A DNA stretch of 64,000 nt, taken from a virus (Duplodnaviria; Caudoviricetes). Made by a program: the position numbers and the translations under genes. The DNA is taken from positions 50,119 to 114,118 of IMG/VR virus record IMGVR_UViG_2509276065_000002. One strand, 5' to 3'. This document shows positions 12,754-64,000 of this stretch, one piece after another (position 1 is the stretch's first letter; each line of letters starts with the position of its first letter). The notes beneath the pieces are model-generated. The model searched no databases. It had not been told where the DNA came from and saw only the letters and a program-made list of their open reading frames with translations.

Positions 12754-15700
12754 TCACCCACGGTAGACATCCGACAGCGCCGGACGGGCGTCGTAACGCC
12801 GTTCGCCTTCACCGTCGGACAGGATGACATGCAACCCACCTCGCAAGCTGTCCGCGAGGTACCGCGCAGCCTGCTCGATGAGTTCGGAGCCGCGTTCGAA
12901 ACGCATCCCGCTCGCGTCGATGCTGGTCATCATCGACACCCCCCGACCGGGAGCGTCCGGAACGGCCACGCGGATTCCTCCGCTGAGGTACTCCGCGGCG
13001 CGTTCCATCAGTTCCGCGCTGCGGATGACTTTCGGAACGTACTCGGAGCCGAAGGCATCGAAGCCTCGCAGCAGTGAAGAGTCGATGGCGGAAATGCCGA
13101 GGTCCGGCATGGCCCCGAACAGGTCGGTGGGTGTGGGGCTGTCACGCTCCTCCCCTTCCAGGCGTTTGATGCGGTCCTGCGCGTCCTGCAGGTCACGCCG
13201 GGCCCGGTCACGCTCCGCGTCCGAGGTGGCTTTCTCGAACCGACCTTGCGCCTGGCTGGCCTGTTCACGCCAGTAGGCGATGCTGTCCGCGCCTGCCGTT
13301 TCCTGTTTCTCGCTGCCGTACCCGGGCAGGCCGCTCAGCAGGCCCCCACCGAGGTTCAGCACCCGCTTGCCTTCACTGCGAATGGCGTCCACCCAGGCGT
13401 CCAGGTTGGTTTGTTCCTGCGCGTCGATCAAGCCGTCGCGCATGGCGTACGCGTAATTCTGCGCGTACCCGTCCATCAGTTCCTGAATCTGACTTTGCGC
13501 CAAGAGCGCCTGAATGGCCATCTTCGCCAGGAAGGAGTTGAGGGTCTTCTCGAACGCCACACCCACCTCGCTGAAGTCCGCTTTGAAGAACCCGTCGACG
13601 AGGGCGGACTCGAGTGAATTCTTGATGCTGCCGCTCAGGTCATTGAAGATCTCCCCTGCTTTCGTCTGCCAGGTGCGTTTGGCACCTTCGAGTTGCCCGA
13701 CCGCGAGGCGGGCGTCCTTCAGCGCTTGCTCACCGAGGTCCTGGAAGTGGTCCCCCCAGCCTTCCATCTGGCGTTGCTCGGCTTCGTCGAGCACACCGTC
13801 ACGCATCGCGCTGGCGTACCAGTGTTTGAAGTCCTCCAGGCGCGCGGCGAGTTTGCTTTGCGCGACGACGGTTTCGGTGATGACCTTGGCGACCAAGGTG
13901 TTGATGGATTTCTTGAAGGTGTCCGTCGCAGCGGACCAGTCTCCCGTCTCGAAGGCGTTGGTGATGCTGCTTTGCAGCGCTCCGCTGACTTCGCCTTGCA
14001 CGTCGTACAGTTGCTGCTGGACTTCTGATCCGAAGCCGTCCAGCTCGCTCAGCACCTCCTTGGAAGCGTCACTGATGACACGACCCTGCGACTTGAAGTA
14101 GCGACCCCATGCTTTGACGTTGGCACGCTCCGAAGCGTCCAGCACACCGTCCTGCATGGCGTGAGCAAGCCATTCGCTGAAGCGTTTCATCTCAGCGGCC
14201 AGCTTCGATTGGGTAATCATCGTCTGGATCAGCAATTTGGCAATGAAGGTATTGATGGACTTGTCAAACGCCGCTTCGGCCTTGGAGAAGTCTCCCGTCA
14301 GAAAGCCGTCCATCAAAGCACTGTCGAGGGTATTGCTGATGGTCGTGCCCAAGTTGGCGAAAATCTCGGCGGCTTTGATCTGCAGTTTGGCCGCCTCTTC
14401 GCTGAGCACCTGGGGTGCTCCACCGAACGCCTGCCAGCCGAGACGCTGCCAGAACCCGGCGTTGGCAAGGGTATCGCGTTTCGCGGCTTCGGCCTCCAAG
14501 GCTTTCTTGAAGGGATTCTCGAATGCCCCGCCGGACAGACCAGCGGCTGACCGCTGGTCACTGGCGATGGACCGCATGCGCTCCTGGTACTCACGCAACC
14601 CGGGGTTGAGCGAGTCGGTGATGAAATCCCCAAGTTGTTCGACGGCATTCAGGGTGCTGGTGATGCCGCCGACGATGTCACCGGACGCGAAGGACTTGAA
14701 GGCGTCGAAGCTGCTGCTGGCCGCTCCGGCCAGTTTGGACAGGGAACCGCCGGTGATTTTGTCGAGGACGTTCGCGACGGCCGTGAAGCCCTGGATGATC
14801 CTGTCGAATTCATTGAGGTACAGCGCCTGCCGGGCTTCGATGCCTTCCTGGGTGATCCGCAGGCGTTCATTCTCGAATTTCTCGCGCGCTTCGAGTTCAT
14901 CGGTGCCTCCTTGCACCGCGGCTTCGTATTCCGCCCTCGCGCTCTCCAGGGCGAGGGCTTCGCGTTGCGCCTGGTAGTCACGCTCGGAGATCAGGTGCTG
15001 ACGAAAGCGGGCTTCGAGGGCGTCACTGCGCCGCTCACGGTTGAGTGACGCCAGGGTCTGCTGGTGCTTGCGTTCCAGTTCCGTCCGGGCCGTGAGGCCT
15101 TGCGAGGTGATGCGTTTCACTTCGTTCTGGTAGCGCTGCTCGGCTTCGACGCGCAGTTGCGTGTTGCTCTGGGCGGCTTGCAACTCCCGGTCCCGGGTGG
15201 CCGCGGCGGCCTGCAGTTGCAGGCGTTCACGTTCGACGAGGTACTGACGTTCGGAGAGCTGACCGGCACTGCGGCGGCTTTCCAGGTCTTGCTCTTCGGC
15301 AGCGCGCAGCAGGTCCTGCATGGTCGCCGCGTGCTGCTGGGCGAGGCGTTCGCGGTCGGTGTTGCCGCTGCGGGTGATGCCGCTCAGGTTCGCTTGATGC
15401 TGACTGAGGGCGAGCTCCCGGCGAGCCTGGGAGGCATGGTCCCGCTCGAGTTGCTGCTCTTCTCCCTGGAAGCGCAGGCGTTCCGCTTCCAGCGCGAGGG
15501 TTTCCCGTTGATCGAGGTACGCGCGTTCACTCAGCAGACCCGCCGAGTGCTGTTGTTCGAGGGTCTGCTGTTGCAGGTTCACCAGACCCAAACGAACGGC
15601 GAGGCGCTCGTCGAGTTGACGTTGCGCTTCTGCCAGCCGCTCGGTGGCCTTCTGGGCGATCTGCTCGGCACCGGCGAGGTTGCGGGTGCGGTCAGCGAGG

Positions 15701-18700
15701 TCCTGCATGCGTTCGGAGTAGGCGCGCAGTTCCTCTTCGGTCATGCCACCGAGGTCGACCCGCAGGCCCGCCTCGAAAGCGCCAGCGATTCCCGCTCCAG
15801 GTTCAGGTTTGCGCTGAGAGTCCTGACCGGGGACGAACCCGGCCGCGCGGGCATCCAGGGAGGTGTTCTTGAGTCGCTCCGCGAACTGCCCGTAACGCTC
15901 CTCAGCGTCCGCGAGGCCGTCCGTGAGGGCTTTCTTCAGCCGGTCACTCAGGCCAGCCCAGGTGTTCTCGTCCGCCATCAGATTCGTGACGGTGGCGATG
16001 ATGCCACCAATCTCGTCTTCAGAGGCGGTGCCGAGCCGAGCGAGGGCTTCTTGTGCGGCCTGCACTTTTACGAGCGCGTCGACGCTCGCTCGACCCGCGT
16101 CGCGCTCACCCGGGCGGGTGATGGCGAGCGGACCGCCATCCGCGTAGGGGTTGGGGAGGTTCGCGTACGCCTGCTGCAGTTGCGTGCGCAGGTCATCCAG
16201 GTACGCGCGGAGTTTCGAGCGGCTCTGCACGCTGAGTTGCTGGAACGCCCCTGATTCGGTCAGGTCGGCCAGCTGCGCGACCTGATCGGTCAGGGTGCCT
16301 GCCAGACCACGAATGACGCTGTTCGCGCCCTCTTCGGCCATTCCGAGCGCTTCGGTTTTGAGGCGCGCGAGCTCATCGGCGGCGAGGCCACTTTTGCTGC
16401 CCAGCTCGTCGATGACGGCGCTGACCGCGTCGAAGTTCATCGCGGCGTCCGGCAGGAGGCGGTTGAGGTCGTCGAGGGTCACCTTGACGCTGTCCATGAT
16501 GGGTCGGCGGTTGAGGTGGTCGTCGGCTGCCCCGACGTTCTTGGCGAGGTACTCGAAGGCGTCCGCGACGCCTTTTTCCTGCGCGGCGAGTTCTGACGCG
16601 CGCTCCCCGTGATGAAAGAACGCCCCGGTGAGTTTGTCCACCGCTGCCACGGCAGGTGCGGTGTCCAGGCCCTTCCCGGACAATTCACGCCGCAGTGACT
16701 GCAGCTGTTCGAGCAGCGCGGCTTTCTTGTCACCGCTGAACTCACCGGCCTGCGCGAGTTCGTCTATCGCGCGGCGTAACCTGGCGTATTTCTGAATGGC
16801 CTCCTCGATGCCGCGAGAGCGTTGGTCTGTCTCTTCCCGCGCGGCTTCTTTCGCGATGATGACGCGTTTGGTGGCTTCATCACGTGCAATGCGGGTTTCG
16901 GTCGTGTACGTGGTCCGGGCGGTGGCCACGGCGGCATCCTCGACCTGCTGAATGCCTTTCAGGATGCTTTGAGGGGTTTTGCCGTCGTACAGCTTGTTTT
17001 GCTCGGTCCGTCGGGCGTTCGCTTCATCCCGTGCCGCTTTGATGGCCGCGTCGCGGGTGCGTGCGGCGATGCTCAGCCGGGCGTTCAGGATCGCCTGACT
17101 GCTTTCACGTTCGATGATCAGACGCTGAGCCGCGTTTTTCTTCTCCCCCGCCAGGCTCGCTTCCCGGGCGGCTTCCAGTTGCCGCAGGGTCGCTTGTGCG
17201 TCACTGAGCCGTCCCTGCGCCAGCTCACGGTTGAGTTGCTTTTGCAGGTTCGCGCGGTTCACGTCGCGCTGATCGGCTTGATCCTGCAACTGCTCGGTTT
17301 TGCGGGCGAGGTCACGCGCGAAGTCGAACGCTGCCCGCTGCGCGTCATTCGTTTTGACGTACCGTTCGATCTCACCGCGCAAGGTGAGCTTCTGCGCTTC
17401 GGTACCTCGCTCTTCGATCTTGAGCGAGCGTTGCGCGAGGTCGGTGGCGCGCGCGCGTTGTTTGTTCCAGTCGGCGGTGGTGAGGACGTACTCCTTGTTT
17501 TCCTTGTTCAGGCTTTTCTGCGCGCCTTGCAGGTTGATGATGACGTCCAGCAGGTCTTTGGCGCTCTGGCTGCCCTTGTTGCCAGTCGCAGCGTACGCCG
17601 CTTGGGCTTCGGTGAGCAGTTTCGAGAGTCCTCCGGCGTACGCCTGCCGGCCTTGGCCGTCCACGTCACCGAGCCGTCCGGCGTTGAAGTTGCGCTGCAA
17701 ATCCTTCAGGCGGTTCGATAACCCGTCCGCACCCGTGGGCAGCAGGCCTTGCTGCGCGTCTTTCACCTGGGTGTACACCCGGGTCAGGTCACGGGTGGCG
17801 TCGGCACTCAAAGCGGTTTTCTTGCGCGCGGCGTCCAACTCACGCTGGAGTTTCTGCAGACCGGTCAGGTACTGCCCTTGCGTGATGTCACCTGCCTTGG
17901 CGCTGAGGCTGAGATCCTCGAAGCGCGAGCGGAACACCTCCGCGGCCGTTCCCGCACTTTTCAGGCCTTTCTCGTAATCGCTGAGGTTCTCCCGGAGTCG
18001 TTTGACGTCCCCGCCTTGCTTCTCGAACTGGGTGATCAACGCGCGTTGCTGCCCGAGGTTTTTGGTGAGCGCCGCGCCGCTGAGGGTCTGCTCTGCTTTG
18101 ATCAGGGCGCGCAGTTGCTGCTCCAGCTTGGCGAGCGCGGTTGTTCTGGCGTTCGCGTCGGCCGCGCTGGGCGCCCCCGTTTTGTCCGGAGTGTATTTCG
18201 AGGTGGGGGTGGCGGAGGGGAACTTGAGGTTCAGGTGCGCGGCGTAATCGCCCTGACGGACGTAAGAGGTGGGGTTGCCCAGCGCACCGATGGCGACATC
18301 ACCACGCGCGTCTCGCCCTCCGGTTTTCGCGTTCGTGACCCGGTTGTTTCCGCGTACGTACCCGTTCCCGACGTAAATCCCGACGTGGTTCTGCCCGTTC
18401 GAGGTGTAAAAGACCAGGTCGCCTTCTTTCAGTTCCTCCTTGCCTCGGTAGGGTTTCAGCAGTCCCGCTTCCTTGAAGTTGTCCGCGGCGCTCCGCGCGG
18501 TCGGCATGAGTTTGCCGTTCACCATGTCTGGCTTCTTGCGGAACATCTCGTCGATGGCTTTCTCGGAGCCTTTGTAGGCCAGCCCGAGGGTCTGACGGAC
18601 CCACTTGGCGCATTCATCCACGATGGCCGTGGTGGCCTTGCTGGTGAGGGCTTTGAAGCTGGTGTCGAGCACCAGCTTCGACGCGCCTTCCTGAGCCGCT

Positions 18701-21456
18701 GCGGCCTTGCCAGGCGCGTAACCGGACAGGTTGATCGACCCGCCTCGCTGGATGGTGGTTTGCAGATGCTTGATCTGCTCGTCGAGTTGCTTGACTTCCT
18801 CGGCCATCCGCGCGGGATTTTCACTGCCGTGCGCGAACAGACCACCAATGATGGGGTTGTTCCGGAAGTACTCGATCCGGTTTTGCAGGTGCTCACGGCG
18901 TTCGACGAGCTTCCCGAGGTGCTGGAAGACGTCATTGTCGAGTTTGGTGCCGTCGATTTCGTTTTTGTTCAGCCACTCGCCGAATTCCGGCAGGCCACCC
19001 GACAGGCGCGACAGGAAAGCGTTGAGTTTCTCCAGGGCGTTGTTGAGTGGACCCACGAAGTTCTTGGTCATCAGGGCACCCAAATCTTCGATGTTGGCTT
19101 TCAAGGTCGCCTGCTGCGCTTCGAGGTCGTCACTGAACTGCGCGCTGTAGCGGTTGAGGGCGCCTGAGCTGTTCTCGATCTCGTGGCCCAGCGTCCGCCA
19201 TTCACCGCTCAGGTTGAGCACCGCCCGCGCACCCTGGGTGTCCATGATGTTGTTGACTGCCGCGAGCGCCTCACCGGTCCCTTCGAGCTTCCCGGTGGTT
19301 TCGTTGTAAGTGATGCCCAGGCTGGACAGTTTGGCGCTCAGGTCCTTGATGATGTCCCCGGCCGGGCGGATGTTGCCGTTGGAGTCGATCACCGCGATAT
19401 TCCACGCCTGCAGTTGCTTGGTGGCTTTGGGTGTGATGTCCGACAAGGCCGCCAGCGCGGAATTCAATCCGTCCGCGCCGGTATCCGCGGCACTCATGCC
19501 TTTGTTGTCCAGTTCGACCAGCATGCCGAGCAAGTCGGACATCTCGATTTTCGCCTGGAAGGCCATCCCGGCGACTTTGTTGAAGCCCGTGAAGAGATCC
19601 GTGGCGGATCCGGCCGCGAGACCGCCGGCTTTGGCGAACATGTCCCCCACTCGCGCGGCCTGTTCCGTTTCGAGGTGGTACTGGTTGATGGCTTTGAGCA
19701 GCATGCCGGACTGTTCGGTCAGGTTGGTGCCTTCCACGAACGCGAACTTGGTGGAGACACCCAGCACGTTCATCGCTTCGGACGCGCTGGCGCCCGCCTT
19801 GACGGTATCGGCGAGTGCGGCGGCCAGGCCGCTCTTGCTGAACGTTCTCGCGGCGTCATTGCCGCTGTTTTTCAGTTGATCGATGCGGTTCTCGATCATC
19901 GTGAGGTCCGTCACGCCACTGTTCGCGAGGGACGAGAAGGACTTCTGCATGACCTTGTGCTGCTCGATGCCGATACGCGCGAGGCTCCCGAGCGCCAGGG
20001 CGACACCGCCGATCACCGCGGCACTCGCCGCGAAGCCAATCGCGAGTTTTGCTTGCCCGAGGGCAGCTTGCCGGGCGACCGGGTCGTGCTCCTTGTGCGC
20101 TTCGATCAGGCTCTGCACGTGCCCAGCCGCGCCTTCCGCAGCGCCACCGAGACCCTCCGCGGCCACTTCGGTCGCGGCGGCCGCCCCGACGCCCTGCTGC
20201 GCGGCCTGCGGGAGGGCCTTGCCGAGCTGACCGGTGACTTTCTCGAGGCTTTCCGACAGACCTTCGATCGCTCCTCCGGCCAGCACACCCCCCGCCAGTC
20301 CTGCCACACTCTGGGTGCTCGTGCCCGGTCCGTGCATGGGCCGGTTGGCCCCGTCACGCGCGGCGTCCGCGAGGAACTGCCCGGCCCGGCGTGCTTCGTT
20401 CGTCTGCGACAGGATGCCTTTCACGTACCCGGACGCGGCGAATTCACCCACGCGGTACATCACCTGCGAAGGGGATTTGATCTGCAGGCGCTCACGGATG
20501 GCGTCCTCGATGCTGCCCCCCATCCGGCGCGCTTCCGCGCGAATGTCATCCATCTGTGAGCGCAATCCGGCCAGCTGACCTTGCCCGGCTGCCTGTCCGA
20601 CTTCCTGCCCGGCCTGGCGGGCTTCTTTGCTTTGCGCGCGGAACTCCAGCCACAACACCCCGAGTTGCTCGGCGAGCTGCCCGAACATCCCGAGGGATCC
20701 CAGTGCGCTCAGGGCTCCCCGGTGAATGCCGTCCGAGAAGCCACCGGGCGTGTTGATACCCATGGCGCTGTCCGCGTTGGTCTGCGCGACCCGCGCGACT
20801 TGCGTGAAGCGCTTGTACGCGTCGCTGGTGTGATCGAGCGCCGCGGCACTCTCCAGCGCCCGGCGACGCACGTCCTCCTGCAACTTCACGACTTGCGGGC
20901 CGTTCAGCACGCCACTCTGCCACAACGAACGGTACGCGGCTGCTTCGTTGGCGAGTGCGGCGGTCGCTTCGCGGGCCTGGCGCGAACGCAGCTGGTACTG
21001 CTGGGCGCTCTGCTGCGCGCTGAGTCGCTCTTCCGCGGTGCGCAGCCGCACGGCCGCGACTTGCTTTTGGGTTTCCGCTATGGCCGTGGCACCGTTGAGT
21101 TTCACGGCGGCTGCTTGCCGTTGAAGTTCCGCGGTGCCGGCCCGCAAGCTGCCCGTCGTGGCGTCGTACTCCGCGCGGAGGGCTTTGGCGCCGAGTCCTT
21201 GTTCCTTGAGGGCCTGGCGGGTCTGCGCGTCGAGTTTACGGCCCTCCAGGCCTTGCTGACGGAGGGAATCACGGGTTTCCTGCGCGAGCTTCCCGGTTTC
21301 CACCCGAGCGTCCTTGATGGAAGCAAGACCGTCCGAACCGACCCGTAACGTCAGTTTCTGAGCGTCGAGTTCCTTCTGGATCGCCGCGACATCCCGCATT
21401 AAACCGGTTTTGTCCGCTCCTGTCTCCGCGATCAGGTCACCGAGTTTCCCGAGCAT
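12754..21456 (-). CDS. tail tape measure protein with NlpC/P60 domain (2900 aa)
   Basis: Long Ala/Gln/Glu-rich helical ORF after the chaperone genes; IKSPSQVM motif; TP901-like core; ECAKWV...GDLVFY...HVGIYVGNG. Confidence 0.93.
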   Translation of the reverse strand: MLGKLGDLIAETGADKTGLMRDVAAIQKELDAQKLTLRVGSDGLASIKDARVETGKLAQETRDSLRQQGLEGRKLDAQTRQALKEQGLGAKALRAEYDATTGSLRAGTAELQRQAAAVKLNGATAIAETQKQVAAVRLRTAEERLSAQQSAQQYQLRSRQAREATAALANEAAAYRSLWQSGVLNGPQVVKLQEDVRRRALESAAALDHTSDAYKRFTQVARVAQTNADSAMGINTPGGFSDGIHRGALSALGSLGMFGQLAEQLGVLWLEFRAQSKEARQAGQEVGQAAGQGQLAGLRSQMDDIRAEARRMGGSIEDAIRERLQIKSPSQVMYRVGEFAASGYVKGILSQTNEARRAGQFLADAARDGANRPMHGPGTSTQSVAGLAGGVLAGGAIEGLSESLEKVTGQLGKALPQAAQQGVGAAAATEVAAEGLGGAAEGAAGHVQSLIEAHKEHDPVARQAALGQAKLAIGFAASAAVIGGVALALGSLARIGIEQHKVMQKSFSSLANSGVTDLTMIENRIDQLKNSGNDAARTFSKSGLAAALADTVKAGASASEAMNVLGVSTKFAFVEGTNLTEQSGMLLKAINQYHLETEQAARVGDMFAKAGGLAAGSATDLFTGFNKVAGMAFQAKIEMSDLLGMLVELDNKGMSAADTGADGLNSALAALSDITPKATKQLQAWNIAVIDSNGNIRPAGDIIKDLSAKLSSLGITYNETTGKLEGTGEALAAVNNIMDTQGARAVLNLSGEWRTLGHEIENSSGALNRYSAQFSDDLEAQQATLKANIEDLGALMTKNFVGPLNNALEKLNAFLSRLSGGLPEFGEWLNKNEIDGTKLDNDVFQHLGKLVERREHLQNRIEYFRNNPIIGGLFAHGSENPARMAEEVKQLDEQIKHLQTTIQRGGSINLSGYAPGKAAAAQEGASKLVLDTSFKALTSKATTAIVDECAKWVRQTLGLAYKGSEKAIDEMFRKKPDMVNGKLMPTARSAADNFKEAGLLKPYRGKEELKEGDLVFYTSNGQNHVGIYVGNGYVRGNNRVTNAKTGGRDARGDVAIGALGNPTSYVRQGDYAAHLNLKFPSATPTSKYTPDKTGAPSAADANARTTALAKLEQQLRALIKAEQTLSGAALTKNLGQQRALITQFEKQGGDVKRLRENLSDYEKGLKSAGTAAEVFRSRFEDLSLSAKAGDITQGQYLTGLQKLQRELDAARKKTALSADATRDLTRVYTQVKDAQQGLLPTGADGLSNRLKDLQRNFNAGRLGDVDGQGRQAYAGGLSKLLTEAQAAYAATGNKGSQSAKDLLDVIINLQGAQKSLNKENKEYVLTTADWNKQRARATDLAQRSLKIEERGTEAQKLTLRGEIERYVKTNDAQRAAFDFARDLARKTEQLQDQADQRDVNRANLQKQLNRELAQGRLSDAQATLRQLEAAREASLAGEKKNAAQRLIIERESSQAILNARLSIAARTRDAAIKAARDEANARRTEQNKLYDGKTPQSILKGIQQVEDAAVATARTTYTTETRIARDEATKRVIIAKEAAREETDQRSRGIEEAIQKYARLRRAIDELAQAGEFSGDKKAALLEQLQSLRRELSGKGLDTAPAVAAVDKLTGAFFHHGERASELAAQEKGVADAFEYLAKNVGAADDHLNRRPIMDSVKVTLDDLNRLLPDAAMNFDAVSAVIDELGSKSGLAADELARLKTEALGMAEEGANSVIRGLAGTLTDQVAQLADLTESGAFQQLSVQSRSKLRAYLDDLRTQLQQAYANLPNPYADGGPLAITRPGERDAGRASVDALVKVQAAQEALARLGTASEDEIGGIIATVTNLMADENTWAGLSDRLKKALTDGLADAEERYGQFAERLKNTSLDARAAGFVPGQDSQRKPEPGAGIAGAFEAGLRVDLGGMTEEELRAYSERMQDLADRTRNLAGAEQIAQKATERLAEAQRQLDERLAVRLGLVNLQQQTLEQQHSAGLLSERAYLDQRETLALEAERLRFQGEEQQLERDHASQARRELALSQHQANLSGITRSGNTDRERLAQQHAATMQDLLRAAEEQDLESRRSAGQLSERQYLVERERLQLQAAAATRDRELQAAQSNTQLRVEAEQRYQNEVKRITSQGLTARTELERKHQQTLASLNRERRSDALEARFRQHLISERDYQAQREALALESARAEYEAAVQGGTDELEAREKFENERLRITQEGIEARQALYLNEFDRIIQGFTAVANVLDKITGGSLSKLAGAASSSFDAFKSFASGDIVGGITSTLNAVEQLGDFITDSLNPGLREYQERMRSIASDQRSAAGLSGGAFENPFKKALEAEAAKRDTLANAGFWQRLGWQAFGGAPQVLSEEAAKLQIKAAEIFANLGTTISNTLDSALMDGFLTGDFSKAEAAFDKSINTFIAKLLIQTMITQSKLAAEMKRFSEWLAHAMQDGVLDASERANVKAWGRYFKSQGRVISDASKEVLSELDGFGSEVQQQLYDVQGEVSGALQSSITNAFETGDWSAATDTFKKSINTLVAKVITETVVAQSKLAARLEDFKHWYASAMRDGVLDEAEQRQMEGWGDHFQDLGEQALKDARLAVGQLEGAKRTWQTKAGEIFNDLSGSIKNSLESALVDGFFKADFSEVGVAFEKTLNSFLAKMAIQALLAQSQIQELMDGYAQNYAYAMRDGLIDAQEQTNLDAWVDAIRSEGKRVLNLGGGLLSGLPGYGSEKQETAGADSIAYWREQASQAQGRFEKATSDAERDRARRDLQDAQDRIKRLEGEERDSPTPTDLFGAMPDLGISAIDSSLLRGFDAFGSEYVPKVIRSAELMERAAEYLSGGIRVAVPDAPGRGVSMMTSIDASGMRFERGSELIEQAARYLADSLRGGLHVILSDGEGERRYDARPALSDVYRG

Positions 21457-49822: not shown

Positions 49823-50491
49823 TCACGGTGCGGTGACGGGGTTGTCGAGATTCACTCCGAGGACACGCGACGCGACTTCGAGTTGCATGTTCAGCAGGGC
49901 CAAGCCGGTGTACCCGTCGGACCTGGCTGCGTCGCGTAACGCTGGCAGGCCGGACAGGACGCTGTCGCGCAGTTCCTCAGGAGTGGCGGGACGCCCTTCC
50001 TTGAAGGCAGCGACACTGATGGGCTCACCGAGGTCGAACAGGCGACCGTTGTGAACGCGGGCGATGGTGTAGGACATGGTCAGCCACAGGACGGTCACGC
50101 CAGGGTTGCGTTTGATCATCTCGCCGGCCGCTTCGCGGGTACCTTCCGGCATGTCATCCTCACGGCGGTTCATGTGCGGGCGGGACAGGAACGGGCAGGC
50201 TTTGATGCTCCACTCACCGCACTCGTGATGCACGGGTGGTTCGGCATCGACGCGATTCACGGCGCACATCGGGCCGATCACGAACGCATAGGGTTCGCCT
50301 GGCAGGAACTTCTCGCCACACACGAAGCAGCGGTTTTCCTTGACAGCCTTATCGACCTTCCGACTGTCCACCACACGAAAGTCGGGCTTGAGGCCGAACC
50401 ACTGGACGAACCACGGCACGGGGTAACCGCGGGCGACGGGTAGTTTGGCGATGCGGGCGGGCATGGGTGGGAGTTCTCGGGCAGTGTGCAT
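49823..50491 (-). CDS. phage hypothetical protein with Cys motifs
   Basis: RGYPVPWFV, CFVCG and EPPVHHEC...ACPFL. Confidence 0.7.
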   Translation of the reverse strand: MHTARELPPMPARIAKLPVARGYPVPWFVQWFGLKPDFRVVDSRKVDKAVKENRCFVCGEKFLPGEPYAFVIGPMCAVNRVDAEPPVHHECGEWSIKACPFLSRPHMNRREDDMPEGTREAAGEMIKRNPGVTVLWLTMSYTIARVHNGRLFDLGEPISVAAFKEGRPATPEELRDSVLSGLPALRDAARSDGYTGLALLNMQLEVASRVLGVNLDNPVTAP

Positions 50492-59361: not shown

Positions 59362-59598
59362 TCATGCGACGTCTTCCTGTTCATTTCGCTCAGCTTCCCA
59401 ACGATCCATAAGTACACGCATGGAACCGGGCAAAATTTTTTCGAGCTTGAACAGGTTTTCGCCGCTGGGAAGCGCGTTTCCCCATTCCCAGGCGAAATAC
59501 GTGGCTGGGTTGACCCCGAGCTTCTTAGCGATCCTGTCGCCACTGAGCTTCTTTCCACGGTCATCCACCTGGGCCTCGCGAAGTTCGCGCAACGTCAT
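59362..59598 (-). CDS. Cro-like XRE HTH regulator
   Basis: LRELRE...IAKKLGVNPATYFAWEWGNALPSGENL; divergent from the repressor. Confidence 0.85.
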   Translation of the reverse strand: MTLRELREAQVDDRGKKLSGDRIAKKLGVNPATYFAWEWGNALPSGENLFKLEKILPGSMRVLMDRWEAERNEQEDVA

Positions 59599-59614
59599 GT
59601 CCACCTCCATCACA

Positions 59615-59644
59615 ATTATATATGCCTGCAAACATATAAGTCAA
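59615..59644 (-). promoter_or_regulatory. lytic (cro) promoter with embedded operator-like palindrome
   Basis: TTGACT-N18-TATAAT; TATATG-N8-CATATA at 59619-59638. Confidence 0.8.
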
Positions 59645-59765
59645 CGCATGATTAGAAGCCGTGTTGCATGTCTGCACCTGTTGTGAGGGGCCTTTCTATG
59701 GGTCTACGCTTATAAGGTGACGCATACGGGAACGTGCGTAAAAGTCAACGCGTATAGGGGTGCAT

Positions 59766-60452
59766 ATGGTCATGTCCTATCCCACTGCACCGACTTCCCG
59801 CTGGCCAGAGGCCCCCGTGCCTAAAAAAGCGAAGGACAAGATTCCTCGCACCGAGCTCGAACGCATCCGGTTGGCGCTCGGTGACGACTTCACCCAGCAG
59901 CGCATCGCGGAACGCATCAGTGAAATCATCGGTGAGGAGATCACCCAGCCGGTCGTCTCTGCCTGGGAACGCATGACCGTCAAAGACTGGCGCAAAGTCG
60001 ACCGTGACCGGCTGCGGGTCTACGCGCAAGTGCTTGGAATCACCACCCGACGGTTCGAAGAACTCATCGGTTTCAAGCCCGGCGAGTTGTTCATCGACAA
60101 CCTAGTCGCTCCGGAATACATCGAAGAACAGTTACGGCGCGTGCACGAACACCGGCGAGTCCAGCACATCGAACTCGACCGACCCGTATATGGGGAATTC
60201 CCGATTCGCGAGTACCCAGCGCCCTACAAGGTCACGCTCACCGTCGACCTCACTCATGACAAGCACGTCCGTTCGGACCCGAGCTGGATCCTGATGGAAC
60301 ACGGCGGGATGCTCTACATCTTTACGTCCACCCACATCCCACGCGAAGCACTCAGGGATTTTCGTTACGTGGGCGTCGTTGTGCGTGTGGACTTCTCAGT
60401 TGGCCCAGCCGCGCCTGCAGAACCGCGTACTCGGGAAGGTCACGAGCAATGA
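59766..60452 (+). CDS. CI-like repressor (XRE HTH, atypical C-terminal domain)
   Basis: FTQQRIAERI...ITQPVVSAWER HTH; divergent from cro; start uncertain. Confidence 0.8.
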   Translation: MVMSYPTAPTSRWPEAPVPKKAKDKIPRTELERIRLALGDDFTQQRIAERISEIIGEEITQPVVSAWERMTVKDWRKVDRDRLRVYAQVLGITTRRFEELIGFKPGELFIDNLVAPEYIEEQLRRVHEHRRVQHIELDRPVYGEFPIREYPAPYKVTLTVDLTHDKHVRSDPSWILMEHGGMLYIFTSTHIPREALRDFRYVGVVVRVDFSVGPAAPAEPRTREGHEQ

Positions 60453-60579
60453 TGGTAAAGGAATAGCCCTCCCCCACCGAACGCAGATCAGCACGCAAGC
60501 GTAAGAGTTCCTCCAGTTCCTCCAGGCTCACCCACCTGATGAGCAGTCGCTCTTCGGAATTCGCCTCTTGGCTGCTCAC
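60352..60579 (-). CDS. small ORF (75 aa) antisense to the repressor 3' end
   Basis: GGAG 8 nt before the GTG; overlaps the repressor by about 100 nt. Confidence 0.35.
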   Translation of the reverse strand: MSSQEANSEERLLIRWVSLEELEELLRLRADLRSVGEGYSFTIIARDLPEYAVLQARLGQLRSPHAQRRPRNENP

Positions 60580-60728
60580 GCAACAACTCCATTTCCCTAC
60601 AACAAGAACGGAGTGTTACAGCTCCCACCACGTGGAGCGACCGCGACGCGTAGGTGCTGTGCCTGGATACCCATACCGAAAGCATACAGGCGCCTGAGGG
60701 CGCCCGCATGACAATCCCAGACAGCTTT

Positions 60729-60881
60729 TCAGCGCAACGGTTTCCAACTTTGCTGCATCGTCAGCGAGGAATAGCAATCCCCTCCGCACGGAGGAATCGC
60801 TGCAGCAGGAGCAGCAGCAGCAGCGATCGTGAAGGCGGCAATGACGAGCCTGACAAACCGTGACAACAGATTTTTCAACAT
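60729..60881 (-). CDS. secreted signalling pre-peptide candidate (50 aa, not in ORF track)
   Basis: MLKNLLSRFVRLVIAAFTIAAAAAPAAA|IPPCGGDCYSSLTMQQSWKPLR; leaderless TAGGCT-N6-ATG. Confidence 0.75.
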   Translation of the reverse strand: MLKNLLSRFVRLVIAAFTIAAAAAPAAAIPPCGGDCYSSLTMQQSWKPLR

Positions 60882-60943
60882 ACCGCCAGCCTAAAACGTC
60901 ACGTGACCAAATGCCACCAAAAACCTGTCACGGTTTGTCAGGC
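60848..60943. repeat. perfect 18-bp inverted repeat flanking the peptide-gene promoter
   Basis: GCCTGACAAACCGTGACA (60848-60865) and TGTCACGGTTTGTCAGGC (60926-60943); GTCACGTGAC palindrome at 60898-60907. Confidence 0.9.
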
Positions 60944-60951
60944 GTCTCGCC

Positions 60952-62436
60952 TTATTGATTGGTCGCCACACGCAGCGCACCTTTCAGCTGAACGCGTACA
61001 TCGTCGGAAAGCATCTCCAGCACACCTTCGTACGCGTTGTTCCAGCTGTGAATCTCATCCACTGCGCCGTAATCACGCGCAGCGCGGGCCAGACGCAACA
61101 AACTACGCGCAACCAACCCCATGTTGACCGGATGGCCGAAGCCAATGTTGGACTGCTGGTCCGTGAACCGTCTGAATTCGGTGGTCGTGAATCCCTCAAG
61201 CTCCGCCAGCTCCGGAGCGAGGTAGCGCAACACCAAAATCCGCCCGACCCGGCCGGGCATCTCGAAGCGGATCCGTCCCATCGCCACCTGCTTACCCACC
61301 AGAAGAGGCGTCGACGCCACGAGCGCCGAGACATCCGGGTGAGCATTCGGCGCGAGCCCGGCCAGGACCAGGTACTCAGGCGCAATCCGATGCATCAACC
61401 GCAACACAAAATGCGTCCGCGGCATCGCCTCCAGGGCCCCGCGCAGCACGCCCGGCAATGCCAGCGGATCACGGCAGGGCGCGCCATGCATTAAGGCGCC
61501 CAGCAGGGCGAACGCCCACAAGGCGCGTTGATCGGGCGCCCTGGGAACCTGCCCCTCCAGCATTCGCGCACCCACCGCCGCCATGCCCGGCCGGCGCACG
61601 TACGCCAGCGCCTGCACCAACCGTGCGTAGGTCGCTTCGGGCTCACCGGTGATCTCACCGAGGGTGATGTCCTCGTCATGCATCAGCAGACCCACGATGC
61701 CGCGCGCGATTTCACCTGCGCCTCCAGCCTCCCCTTCACGAGGAACTTCCCCGGTGTGCAGCAGCAATGCGTTCAGCAGCTCCCGCTGCTGCTCATGATA
61801 AGTCGCCCCACGTTGGAGGATCTCCATGGCATGCGCGTAGTCTCCCGAAAGCATCAATCCTTCAGCGAGTACCGCCTCGCCGAACGCCCGACGCCGCGGA
61901 CTGATCGAGTCACGCGCCAGAACCAGGCGCAACCGGTCCGGGTTCGCTTGACCGACCAGGTTGCTGACCCGTTCCAGCTCCAGGCTCAAGATGTCGTCCT
62001 TGTGCTGCATGCCGAGTTGCTGTGCGAACGCCAGCGAAATGCGCAGGTACGTCAGACCGGCCTGAGGGTCGCCGGATTGCGTGTACGCCATGGACAAGCC
62101 GTGGTAGGCGTGGCAGGACCCCTCCAGGTCTACCCTGCGCGATCCGCCTGGCGTGAAGCCGAGCCGGATCGCCTGCTCATGCAAATTCAGTTGCGCCAGC
62201 ATCATCAGCCGCCAGCCGCTCGCCAGGTTCCCCGGGACGTCCTCCAGGGTCGAGAGCGATGCAGCGAGATCACCTTGCGCTCCGAGGCACATCGCGTAAC
62301 GCGCTCGACCCAGTGGATCTTCACGTGAGATGAGCGTGCCCTGGAGTTCACGGGCGCGGCCGCTGCCGAGAAGGGCATCAAACGAAACAGGATCATTCAA
62401 AGCGAGTTCGGATTTGCTGAGGCGCTCTTGCTCCAC
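60952..62436 (-). CDS. TPR-like alpha-helical protein, candidate peptide receptor/regulator
   Basis: TPR-like segments AYHGLSMAYTQSGDPQAGLTYLRISLAFAQQLG and VLAEGLMLSGDYAHAMEILQR; GGAG RBS. Confidence 0.7.
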   Translation of the reverse strand: MEQERLSKSELALNDPVSFDALLGSGRARELQGTLISREDPLGRARYAMCLGAQGDLAASLSTLEDVPGNLASGWRLMMLAQLNLHEQAIRLGFTPGGSRRVDLEGSCHAYHGLSMAYTQSGDPQAGLTYLRISLAFAQQLGMQHKDDILSLELERVSNLVGQANPDRLRLVLARDSISPRRRAFGEAVLAEGLMLSGDYAHAMEILQRGATYHEQQRELLNALLLHTGEVPREGEAGGAGEIARGIVGLLMHDEDITLGEITGEPEATYARLVQALAYVRRPGMAAVGARMLEGQVPRAPDQRALWAFALLGALMHGAPCRDPLALPGVLRGALEAMPRTHFVLRLMHRIAPEYLVLAGLAPNAHPDVSALVASTPLLVGKQVAMGRIRFEMPGRVGRILVLRYLAPELAELEGFTTTEFRRFTDQQSNIGFGHPVNMGLVARSLLRLARAARDYGAVDEIHSWNNAYEGVLEMLSDDVRVQLKGALRVATNQ

Positions 62437-62785: not shown

Positions 62786-64000
62786 ATGAGAAAAAGTGCG
62801 AACGGTGAAGGCACCATCTATAAACGCAAGGACGGCCGCTACGAAGCTCGGATCACCGTGGGCCGGACCGAGCAGGGGCACCCGCGGCGTATCAGCAAGA
62901 TCAGCCGTAAGCGCAAAGACGTCAGCGACTGGCTGTCCGAGCAGCTGGCGAAACGCAACGCGGGCGACCTCACCGAACCCAGCCGCGTGACTTTTGCCGG
63001 GTGGGTCGAGCATTACCATGCGAGCCTCACCGTTCGGCCAAACACCATGGACGACTACCACAAAGCGCTGGCGCCGGCCATTGAAACGCTGGGCCACGTG
63101 AAGCTGCGCGAACTGACCCCGGCCCGGCTGCAGGCCGCGCTGAACGAGTGGACGAAGAAGCGCACGGCGTACCAGAACCGCAAGACCGTGAAGCGCCTGC
63201 GGGCGACCCTCGCCGAGGCGGAACGGTTGGAGTTGATCGTCCGAAATCCCGCGCGCACCCTCCGCCTTCCGAAGACCGAAGCGCAGCAGATTCTGGTGTG
63301 GTGGGCGGAGGAAGCGCAGCAGGTGCTGGCGTACGCACGGGCGAACGATCACCGCCTCTTCCCTTTTCTGCACGTCAACCTCGTGACCGGCCTGAGGCGT
63401 GAGGAAATGCTCGGTTTGCGCTGGCAGGATGTGGATTTCGAGCATCATGAATTGCACGTCCGGCAGACCATCACCTTCATCGCTGGGAAGGCGGACATCG
63501 GCGAACCGAAAACCCCGAAGTCCCGCCGGACCGTGGACCTCGATGAGGACACCATCAACGTGTTGCGCACCTGGCAATCCCGCCAGCAGCTCGAGCGCCA
63601 GCTGGCGGGGGACCGATGGCAGCACACCGACCTGGTGTTCGCCACACCAGTCGGGAAAGCCTGGGCGGAAACCTACCTCGCCAAAGTATTCCGGTCGGTG
63701 ATGGAGGCGGCCGGCGTACCCCGCATCCGGCTGTATGACCTGCGGCACTGTTACGCCTCGATCGCGTACGAGGCAGGGGTGCCGCTGAAGCTGATCAGCG
63801 ACCGGATGGGACACGAGAACATCGCCTTTACCCTCAAGACGTACGTGCATTCGAGCAAGCGGATGCGCAAGGCGACCGCCTGGTCCGCGTCGCGGTTGTT
63901 CGGCAGTGCGGTGGATCGGGTGATGGCAGCCGAGGGCGGTGAGGGAAACGTTGCCGTCATGTTGCCGTCAAAGGGCAAAAAAAGACAGGACGCCAGCTGA
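62786..64000 (+). CDS. int: phage tyrosine integrase
   Basis: NGEGTIYKRKDGRYEA arm domain; TGLRREE, KT, YDLRH and RMGHENIAFTLKTYVH catalytic motifs. Confidence 0.96.
   Translation: MRKSANGEGTIYKRKDGRYEARITVGRTEQGHPRRISKISRKRKDVSDWLSEQLAKRNAGDLTEPSRVTFAGWVEHYHASLTVRPNTMDDYHKALAPAIETLGHVKLRELTPARLQAALNEWTKKRTAYQNRKTVKRLRATLAEAERLELIVRNPARTLRLPKTEAQQILVWWAEEAQQVLAYARANDHRLFPFLHVNLVTGLRREEMLGLRWQDVDFEHHELHVRQTITFIAGKADIGEPKTPKSRRTVDLDEDTINVLRTWQSRQQLERQLAGDRWQHTDLVFATPVGKAWAETYLAKVFRSVMEAAGVPRIRLYDLRHCYASIAYEAGVPLKLISDRMGHENIAFTLKTYVHSSKRMRKATAWSASRLFGSAVDRVMAAEGGEGNVAVMLPSKGKKRQDAS

Follow-up and report, generated by a model that had tools for sequence, protein, structure and literature searches.

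Does the lysogeny-control region of a prophage of Deinococcus harbour a peptide-based communication system? The question arises from a stretch of 64,000 nucleotides of a virus of the class Caudoviricetes (IMG/VR record IMGVR_UViG_2509276065_000002, positions 50,119 to 114,118), hereafter called the window. There, three open reading frames (ORFs) follow one another on the minus strand between a tyrosine integrase gene and a repressor-like gene, and an earlier note had taken them for a switch analogous to arbitrium, encoding successively a helical receptor, a secreted pre-peptide and a further small product. Arbitrium and RRNPP-type signalling are usually seen as peculiar to the Bacillota and their mobile elements. 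The surveys of these systems that were consulted treat the Bacillota only and leave Deinococcus unmentioned (PMC10075063, PMC9765709, PMC12700828), and a literature search combining RRNPP or arbitrium with Deinococcus returned nothing relevant and no paper describing such a module. The sequence and structure-model evidence assembled here favours, with a rough probability of 0.55, an arbitrium/Rap-Phr-like peptide-sensing module in the lysis-lysogeny switch, built on a new receptor family; as the pairing of this receptor with a gene for a predicted secreted cysteine-containing peptide returns in every related element examined, it is a strong candidate for a peptide signal passed between viruses beyond the Bacillus group. 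The three ORFs (494, 50 and 75 residues) had been located to the exact nucleotide, namely:

60952-62436, minus strand: receptor-like protein of 494 residues; GTG start codon with a GGGGAG Shine-Dalgarno sequence 6 nt upstream; predicted superhelix of the tetratricopeptide repeat (TPR) type over about residues 1-365, followed by a C-terminal domain of 130 residues
60729-60881, minus strand: pre-peptide gene, 50 residues; ATG start codon; predicted Sec-type signal peptide; homologue, by position and motif, of P-C-x-x-C pre-peptides
60352-60579, minus strand: ORF of 75 residues in the position of a third, aimX-like gene; GTG start codon with a GGAG Shine-Dalgarno sequence 7 nt upstream

A pre-peptide gene conserved next to the receptor gene

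Read from its sequence, the 50-residue product begins with a Sec-type signal peptide, i.e., a basic n-region (K3, R8, R11), a 13-residue hydrophobic core and an A-A-A preceding I29, and cleavage predicted after A28 would leave a 22-residue tail starting IPPCGGDC, in agreement with the signal peptide plus short tail described in the earlier note. A lipoprotein reading was rejected, since neither the window peptide nor most of its relatives have a lipobox cysteine after the h-region.

Homologues of the 494-residue protein were taken at 20 places with 6 kb on each side, 19 of them being confirmed as full-length by tblastn, and the small same-strand ORFs downstream of the receptor stop codon were listed in these 19 loci. 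Without exception (19/19), a pre-peptide ORF of 34-82 residues is present within about 80 nt of the receptor stop, and all 19 products exhibit an MKK-type n-region, a hydrophobic core, an AxA-type cleavage site and, at the C-terminus, P-C-x-x-C followed by 0-4 residues. Because a signal-peptide ORF thus occupies the same place in every full-length homologue locus, the 50-residue ORF of the window stands beyond chance; in the genome to which the window belongs, small ORFs with both a signal-like N-terminus and a C-x-x-C end amount to 6 out of 44,941, and about 1e-3 signal-like C-x-x-C ORF per locus would be expected by chance. In the alignment of the pre-peptides, both cysteines are invariant and the proline is present in at least 90% of the sequences. 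The region between signal peptide and tail is 0 to about 55 residues long and is not conserved, the conserved parts being the signal peptide and the C-terminal Cys-x-x-Cys tail only (at least 23 loci).

The same signal-peptide pattern is found in two partial matches of the same family (L018 and L019), and a pre-peptide ORF is present too in four distant relatives from low-GC genomes of other families in the order. As such, the adjoining signal-peptide ORF expected from the earlier note was retrieved with 19 full-length, two partial and four distant homologues. In loci L021, L023, L028 and L029 (genomes G289, G245, G321 and G320, respectively; GC content of 0.39-0.57), partly matching TPR proteins are followed by signal-peptide ORFs devoid of a pro-region. 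The ORFs following the distant TPR proteins end in WCTRC, WCPRC, WCANCF and FCTRC, and the mature peptides predicted for the distant relatives comprise 6-8 residues, namely AWCPRC, GWCANCF, GPDFCTRC and QWCTRC. That cleavage leaves only 6-8 residues in these relatives argues for a functional product of about 6-8 residues containing C-x-x-C. Since distant TPR proteins in other families also precede C-x-x-C signal-peptide ORFs, the module seems to predate the high-GC Deinococcus phages and to extend beyond them.

On the receptor tree, the peptide tails track the receptor clades (Spearman 0.38), a correlation that could stem from co-inheritance alone; the co-variation of the mature region foreseen in the earlier note is thus present, with an origin that need not lie in recognition. 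The tail NDPCAEC is shared by receptors with 52% identity and the tail PCPKC by receptors with 37%, and such identical tails persist although the pro-regions differ in both sequence and length. Co-resident systems of one genome mostly have different tails. This is the pattern expected of receptor-specific "pherotypes".

Receptor family and predicted fold

No family of Pfam, PHROG, NCBIfam or PADLOC accommodates the 494-residue protein, for which only sub-threshold TPR matches were obtained from Pfam, and a word-index homologue search returned the query only. An exhaustive search of representative sequences gave 87 representatives of the family, nearly all of 440-530 residues and aligning end to end at 22-33% identity (E values of 1e-43 to 1e-10 and 25-33% identity for full-length matches to the window protein), the closest relative of the window protein being about 30-32% identical. 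Among the 363 genomes of the same order that were searched, full-length matches are confined to the window's own family, where they occur in 22 of 124 genomes; the distribution is patchy and several genomes carry two copies, as expected for mobile DNA. With 44 of the 51 family-conserved residues retained and an intact ORF, the window protein is a normal member. A search with tblastn against the INPHARED phage collection gave no match.

When the family profile was compared with the PDB sequences, only designed or consensus TPR proteins were found, at E values of 3e-4 or weaker, and generic TPR/HEAT matches are sporadic, i.e., 9 among 65 family members. The view that this receptor family lies outside RRNPP by sequence is thereby upheld. 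Longer members (P0042, P0024 and others) exhibit no recognisable added domain, hence no Rosetta-stone fusion, and no fused DNA-binding domain occurs in the longer forms among the 87 representatives. The receptor N-terminus has no hydrophobic or signal segment, and the protein is predicted to be cytoplasmic.

The AlphaFold2 model, computed with 65 homologues, is an all-helical TPR-type superhelix with a predicted local distance difference test score (pLDDT) of 95 and a predicted template modelling score of 0.92, in line with the helical protein with TPR-like segments first noticed in the sequence. With the full model, Foldseek returned generic TPR proteins only, at low template modelling scores. 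In a VIA-align exhaustive structural search over 48,161 chains, the top match was domain III of MalT (PDB 1hz4; Z 17.4, 304 residues), and the matches included AimR of SPbeta (5xyb; Z 14.8, 300 residues aligned), the Rap protein of phage phi105 with its peptide (8rte; Z 13.5), NprR with NprX (Z 13.3), PlcR with PapR (Z 13.0) and RapI (4i1a; Z 11.7). The top 7 of the 48,161 chains include AimR, phage Rap, NprR and PlcR, with some 180-300 residues aligned each; because Z values of about 13-14 can be generic for helical repeats, many repeat proteins scoring high, the receptor is read as carrying an RRNPP-like sensor fold and this is not taken as proof of kinship. The alignments to the known receptors span model residues 1 to about 370 and start at residue 43 of AimR, 67 of NprR and 70 of PlcR, i.e., past their helix-turn-helix (HTH) domains. 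The receptor therefore lacks an N-terminal DNA-binding domain, as the earlier note had supposed, and Pfam gives no match to an HTH there; neither in Pfam nor in the AlphaFold2 model, which covers the 494 residues only, is there any NTPase or HTH domain.

Residues 362-494 form a separate conserved domain, where PLLxG, LPGRxG, an arginine, VNxG and a tryptophan are conserved. Modelled alone (pLDDT 94), this domain retrieved nothing above Z 6.6 with VIA-align and no Foldseek match at an E value of 0.001 or below. A DNA-binding role, prompted by the conserved R...VNxG segment, was considered and left aside as unsupported by any fold match.

Third gene and recurrent gene order

With the ORFs of the 20 loci clustered and Pfam run on the representatives, a recurrent gene order emerged, namely receptor, peptide, third small ORF, a convergent XRE-type protein of about 200 residues and a divergent small HTH protein, often with a tyrosine integrase or a large ParB-like protein at the end. 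The convergent XRE-type gene is present in 16 of the 19 loci, and the XRE-type proteins at this repressor position give sub-threshold HTH_26/HTH_31 matches. In 16 loci other than the window, the third protein is conserved over a core of about 60 residues, with scores of 17-60 bits by leave-one-out hidden Markov model (HMM) against a background maximum of 10-16, and in 14 of these 16 its stop codon is located within the 3'-terminal part of the convergent XRE gene (overlaps of 4-215 nt).

In the window, a small ORF converging on the repressor-like gene had likewise been pointed out, and the 75-residue ORF indeed overlaps the convergent 230-residue gene by 101 nt at its 3' end. The GC content at its codon positions is coding-like (0.70/0.45/0.61). 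The model obtained for this ORF from an ESM Atlas query was poor (pLDDT 0.46) and offered no usable lead.

Several side observations concern the relatives. In L033 (KNUC1210 plasmid NZ_CP092193.1, 16476-19457) and in L042, from a second genome, the third gene is replaced by a gene encoding an "AAA family ATPase" of about 990 residues, which may be an alternative output module. In eight loci (L032, L034, L042-L046 and L048), a divergent gene of 150-310 residues, cluster c3, is located upstream of the receptor gene; its members show only a weak DUF6011-like match, and the window has the integrase in that place. Loci L052 and L054 both belong to NZ_CP097156.1 (Deinococcus sp. QL22 "plasmid unnamed8"), a circular element of 188,830 bp where the receptor occurs twice, 94,416 bp apart and with identical scores. 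It carries genes for a tape measure protein (8.7 kb), a major capsid protein, an S49 peptidase, a small terminase, a KilAC antirepressor and an integrase, and apparently represents a dimeric assembly of a circular phage of about 94.4 kb, deposited as a plasmid. In this record, the receptor and the third ORF are each annotated as "hypothetical protein" and the peptide gene is unannotated. With its genes listed as "hypothetical" or left without annotation in public records, the system escapes current annotation.

Comparison with known systems

Arbitrium, as known from SPbeta/phi3T-like Bacillus phages, consists of the HTH-TPR receptor AimR, a pro-peptide of about 40 residues and aimX located 3' of aimP (PMC9232636). 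Like arbitrium, the module is phage-borne and placed in the lysogeny-control region of a prophage, with the same-strand order of receptor, small pre-peptide, here predicted to be secreted, and third small gene; the ligand-binding part of the receptor is modelled as a degenerate TPR superhelix, as in AimR, and the conserved part of the pre-peptide is its C-terminal end, as is the active part in arbitrium. Unlike AimR (HTH plus nine TPR, dimer), with which it shares no sequence similarity, the Deinococcus receptor has no N-terminal HTH and carries an extra C-terminal domain of 130 residues. Whereas arbitrium peptides are hexapeptides of the xxxxGG/A type, here two cysteines are invariant (P-C-x-x-C), and the third gene, unlike aimX, encodes a different conserved protein with its core of about 60 residues and overlaps the convergent repressor gene. 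The hosts are Deinococcota instead of Bacillota, and no operator of the 6-bp/25-bp AimR type was seen.

Rap-Phr offers further points of likeness, namely a TPR receptor devoid of a DNA-binding domain and an adjoining Phr-like pre-peptide with a C-terminal active part, both found on phages and mobile elements. As the receptor is Rap-like in this respect, an output through protein-protein contact is suggested. It nevertheless differs from Rap, with no sequence similarity and with its extra domain at the C-terminus, the N-terminal three-helix bundle of Rap not being identified; unlike Phr, the peptide contains cysteines, and the targets known in Bacillus, i.e., response regulators of the Spo0F/ComA type, have no evident counterpart here. 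With NprR-NprX and PlcR-PapR of the Bacillus cereus group, the module shares the TPR peptide-binding fold, as modelled, and the placement of the secreted pre-peptide gene immediately 3' of that of the receptor, but those regulators possess an N-terminal XRE HTH, are chromosomal, govern virulence or necrotrophism and show no sequence similarity to it. As for MalT, whose domain III is a superhelical TPR-like sensor, it belongs to a large STAND ATPase with a LuxR-type HTH and maltotriose as ligand, while the window protein has no NTPase, no HTH and no Pfam TPR_MalT match.

Set against what defines each system, the window thus contains two features of RRNPP, i.e., a predicted cytoplasmic receptor with a TPR-type superhelix and an adjoining pre-peptide gene with a conserved C-terminal end, but no sequence homology to it, no N-terminal HTH and no three-helix bundle identified as that of Rap. 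From arbitrium, it has the lysogeny module with a same-strand ORF after the peptide gene, but neither an AimR-type protein nor an AimP-type hexapeptide. The NTPase (NACHT/AAA) and effector HTH of STAND/MalT proteins are both absent. Relative to its own family, the window copy has the full-length receptor but departs from it in the ending of the peptide and in the third protein.

Prophage setting and switch region

The window is part of the 3.88-Mb main contig of a genome of 4.5 Mb and 64% GC. As Erf, DnaB, DNA methyltransferases, a large terminase and a head protease are encoded in the rest of it, the region considered here is the lysogeny end of a prophage, where the module is flanked by the integrase on one side and a cI/Cro-type pair on the other. 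A single ORF of 2,900 residues at 12754-21456 (minus strand), in the structural region, probably encodes a giant tape measure protein, by likeness to the 8.7-kb gene of the QL22 phage. Around the module, the following features were identified:

62786-64000, continuing past the end of the window, plus strand: tyrosine integrase, divergent from the receptor gene (Pfam Phage_integrase, 9.7e-23; PHROG 1, 1.4e-60)
59760-60452, plus strand: protein of 230 residues (211 in the public gene call) at the repressor position, convergent with the receptor operon
59362-59631, minus strand: Cro-like HTH_3 protein, divergent from the 230-residue gene (Pfam HTH_3, 2.9e-7)
60848-60943, no strand assigned: perfect 18-bp inverted repeat (arms 60848-60865 and 60926-60943, 60 nt apart), with the ATG start codon of the peptide gene and a candidate -10 box, TAGGCT, between its arms
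60689-60716, minus strand: computed hairpin with a stem of about 12 bp around GGCGCC-CTCA-GGCGCC, between the peptide gene and the 75-residue ORF

The name of cI-like repressor given earlier to the 230-residue protein is backed by position, by the divergent Cro-like gene and by a weak match of its C-terminal 69 columns to the XRE-type profile of 16 other loci (hhalign probability 67%, E value 5e-5), but has no support from family assignment, since no HMM family was found in Pfam, PHROG or NCBIfam and the protein is an orphan in sequence search. In the switch region (59615-59751), a promoter scan revealed a sigma70-like promoter TTGACT-18-TATAAT at 59644-59615 on the minus strand, with 11 of 12 matches. 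Its position implies that the Cro-like mRNA would be leaderless, starting near the internal ATG at 59610 rather than at the TTG at 59631. Two 13-nt direct repeats, TA(T/A)AAGTCAACGC, at 59635 and 59739 are candidate operators.

Closer to the peptide gene, the 18-bp inverted repeat has its 3' arm over peptide codons 6-11, is unique in the 4.5-Mb genome and is absent from the 19 other loci; being single-copy, it cannot be a multi-copy miniature inverted-repeat transposable element, and this reading was dropped. As RNA, the pair would fold at -57.2 kcal/mol (z -7.5). Such a hairpin would bury the peptide start codon only in transcripts reading through from the receptor gene, while a leaderless transcript from the peptide's own promoter would escape it. 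The arms could equally be a pair of operators. Each arm holds TGTCA-N5-TGTCA, and between the arms lies a palindrome, GTCACGTGAC (60898-60907; five copies in the genome), so that the peptide promoter is surrounded by an array of GTGAC(A)-type half-sites. The hairpin at 60689-60716 is a possible attenuator or weak terminator, and hairpins of 11-14 bp occur directly 3' of the peptide gene in four other loci (L036, L039, L042 and L046).

Proposed mechanism and alternative readings

In the favoured reading, the pre-peptide would be exported and cut by signal peptidase, after A28 in the window, and perhaps trimmed further, so that a short cysteine-containing peptide would build up extracellularly with the multiplication of lysogens or infected cells. 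It may re-enter through one of the host's many Opp/Dpp-type permeases, the 18 SBP_bac_5 (Opp/Dpp-type) binding-protein genes of the host genome being necessary for this but no proof of it, and would then bind the concave face of the receptor TPR superhelix. Because the receptor has no DNA-binding domain, the output is most likely Rap-like, with the conserved C-terminal domain contacting the repressor, the third small protein or a host factor; read-through transcription control of the downstream ORF may add to it, as the repressor gene is overlapped at its 3' end by this ORF in antisense. Overall, the density of related phages would set the level of repressor and, through it, the balance of lysogeny and lysis. 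With its two cysteines, the signal could occur either as the free dithiol or closed into a small disulfide-bonded ring.

Several results weigh against this reading. No sequence tie connects the receptor family to any RRNPP family in Pfam, NCBIfam or PDB profiles, MalT domain III outscores every RRNPP receptor in the fold search where the scores of the latter may be generic, and both Pfam and the structural alignments leave the receptor without a DNA-binding domain. The tracking of receptor clades by the tails is open to explanation by common descent, as said above. In the window itself, the peptide is the sole exception among the 20 aligned, with P-C-G-G-D-C followed by 14 residues; an HMM built without it ranks it 4th of 63,605 genome ORFs at 13.5 bits, which is non-significant genome-wide (E value 0.32). 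Besides, the 75-residue ORF is not homologous to the third protein of the family (2.1 bits by leave-one-out HMM vs 17-60 for the other 16), and no HMM library recognises an HTH in the 230-residue protein at the repressor position. At the level of the family, the analogous quorum-sensing switch proposed in the earlier note is supported by the 19/19 linkage, the tail-clade tracking and the RRNPP receptors among the top 7 fold matches. This support is firmer for the family than for the window copy because of the C-x-x-x-C with its tail and the non-homologous third ORF.

These departures also feed the thought that the family signals while the window copy is decaying or rewired, the prophage no longer signalling or only eavesdropping. 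The receptor ORF, with its conserved positions, and the peptide ORF, with a good signal peptide and the Pro-Cys start of the motif, are nonetheless intact, and the 75-residue ORF has a Shine-Dalgarno sequence and coding-like codon-position GC. This is to be set beside an ending unlike the C-x-x-C plus 0-4 residues of all the others, the replacement of the family third gene, the remoteness of the closest receptor relative and a foreign 96-bp inverted-repeat segment over the peptide start, its 18-bp repeat being found at the window locus only; on balance, decay or rewiring appears quite improbable. A far more sceptical view would see in the 50-residue ORF a chance intergenic frame next to an ordinary phage TPR protein. 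Its codon-position GC is flat (0.51/0.57/0.57), no family of Pfam, PHROG or NCBIfam matches it, and the peptide is unannotated in the public records of the relatives, but the same kind of ORF stands in place at 19/19 loci whose receptors are only 21-32% identical to that of the window, with two invariant cysteines and a proline nearly so where the background is a mere handful of ORFs in a genome. Already contradicted by these conservation data, this view is hardly tenable.

It may also be that peptide and TPR protein do not act on each other. The Cys-x-x-Cys peptide would then work in the envelope, e.g., in thiol-redox chemistry or metal binding, in superinfection exclusion or in lysis timing, and the TPR protein would serve independently as an adaptor or anti-repressor for the XRE repressor; co-transcription of the two would reflect nothing more than their place in the lysogeny module. 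C-x-x-C is a classic thiol-disulfide and metal-binding motif, but only the last 5-7 exported residues are conserved here, behind a pro-region of highly variable length, and the distant relatives would export a product below the size of an envelope protein. Moron and exclusion genes often adjoin repressors; PADLOC, on the other hand, detects no defence system in the receptor, the peptide or the third ORF, and the peptide gene is never apart from the TPR gene in the 23 loci having it. That the best fold match is a small-molecule sensor, that the receptor lacks a DNA-binding domain and that its C-terminal domain has no fold match would suit this reading. All in all, an envelope function deserves to be kept in mind and is judged unlikely. 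The peptide-sensing module thus continues to be the favoured reading.

Implications for phage communication

Redox stress dominates the biology of Deinococcus. The boldest extension of the peptide-sensing reading would be a first genuine phage-phage communication outside the Bacillota, in the Deinococcota, based on a new receptor family devoid of a DNA-binding domain, where a very short C-x-x-C peptide switchable between dithiol and disulfide would report both the density of kin and the redox state of the environment to a phage deciding on lysogeny or lysis; in this full form, it is a long shot. If the peptide-sensing reading itself is true, it would mean that peptide signalling by viruses has originated in, or reached, a second, far removed phylum with a diderm-like envelope, that a new receptor family with a non-DNA-binding output exists, and that a cysteine-based chemistry is to be added to that of the known signals.

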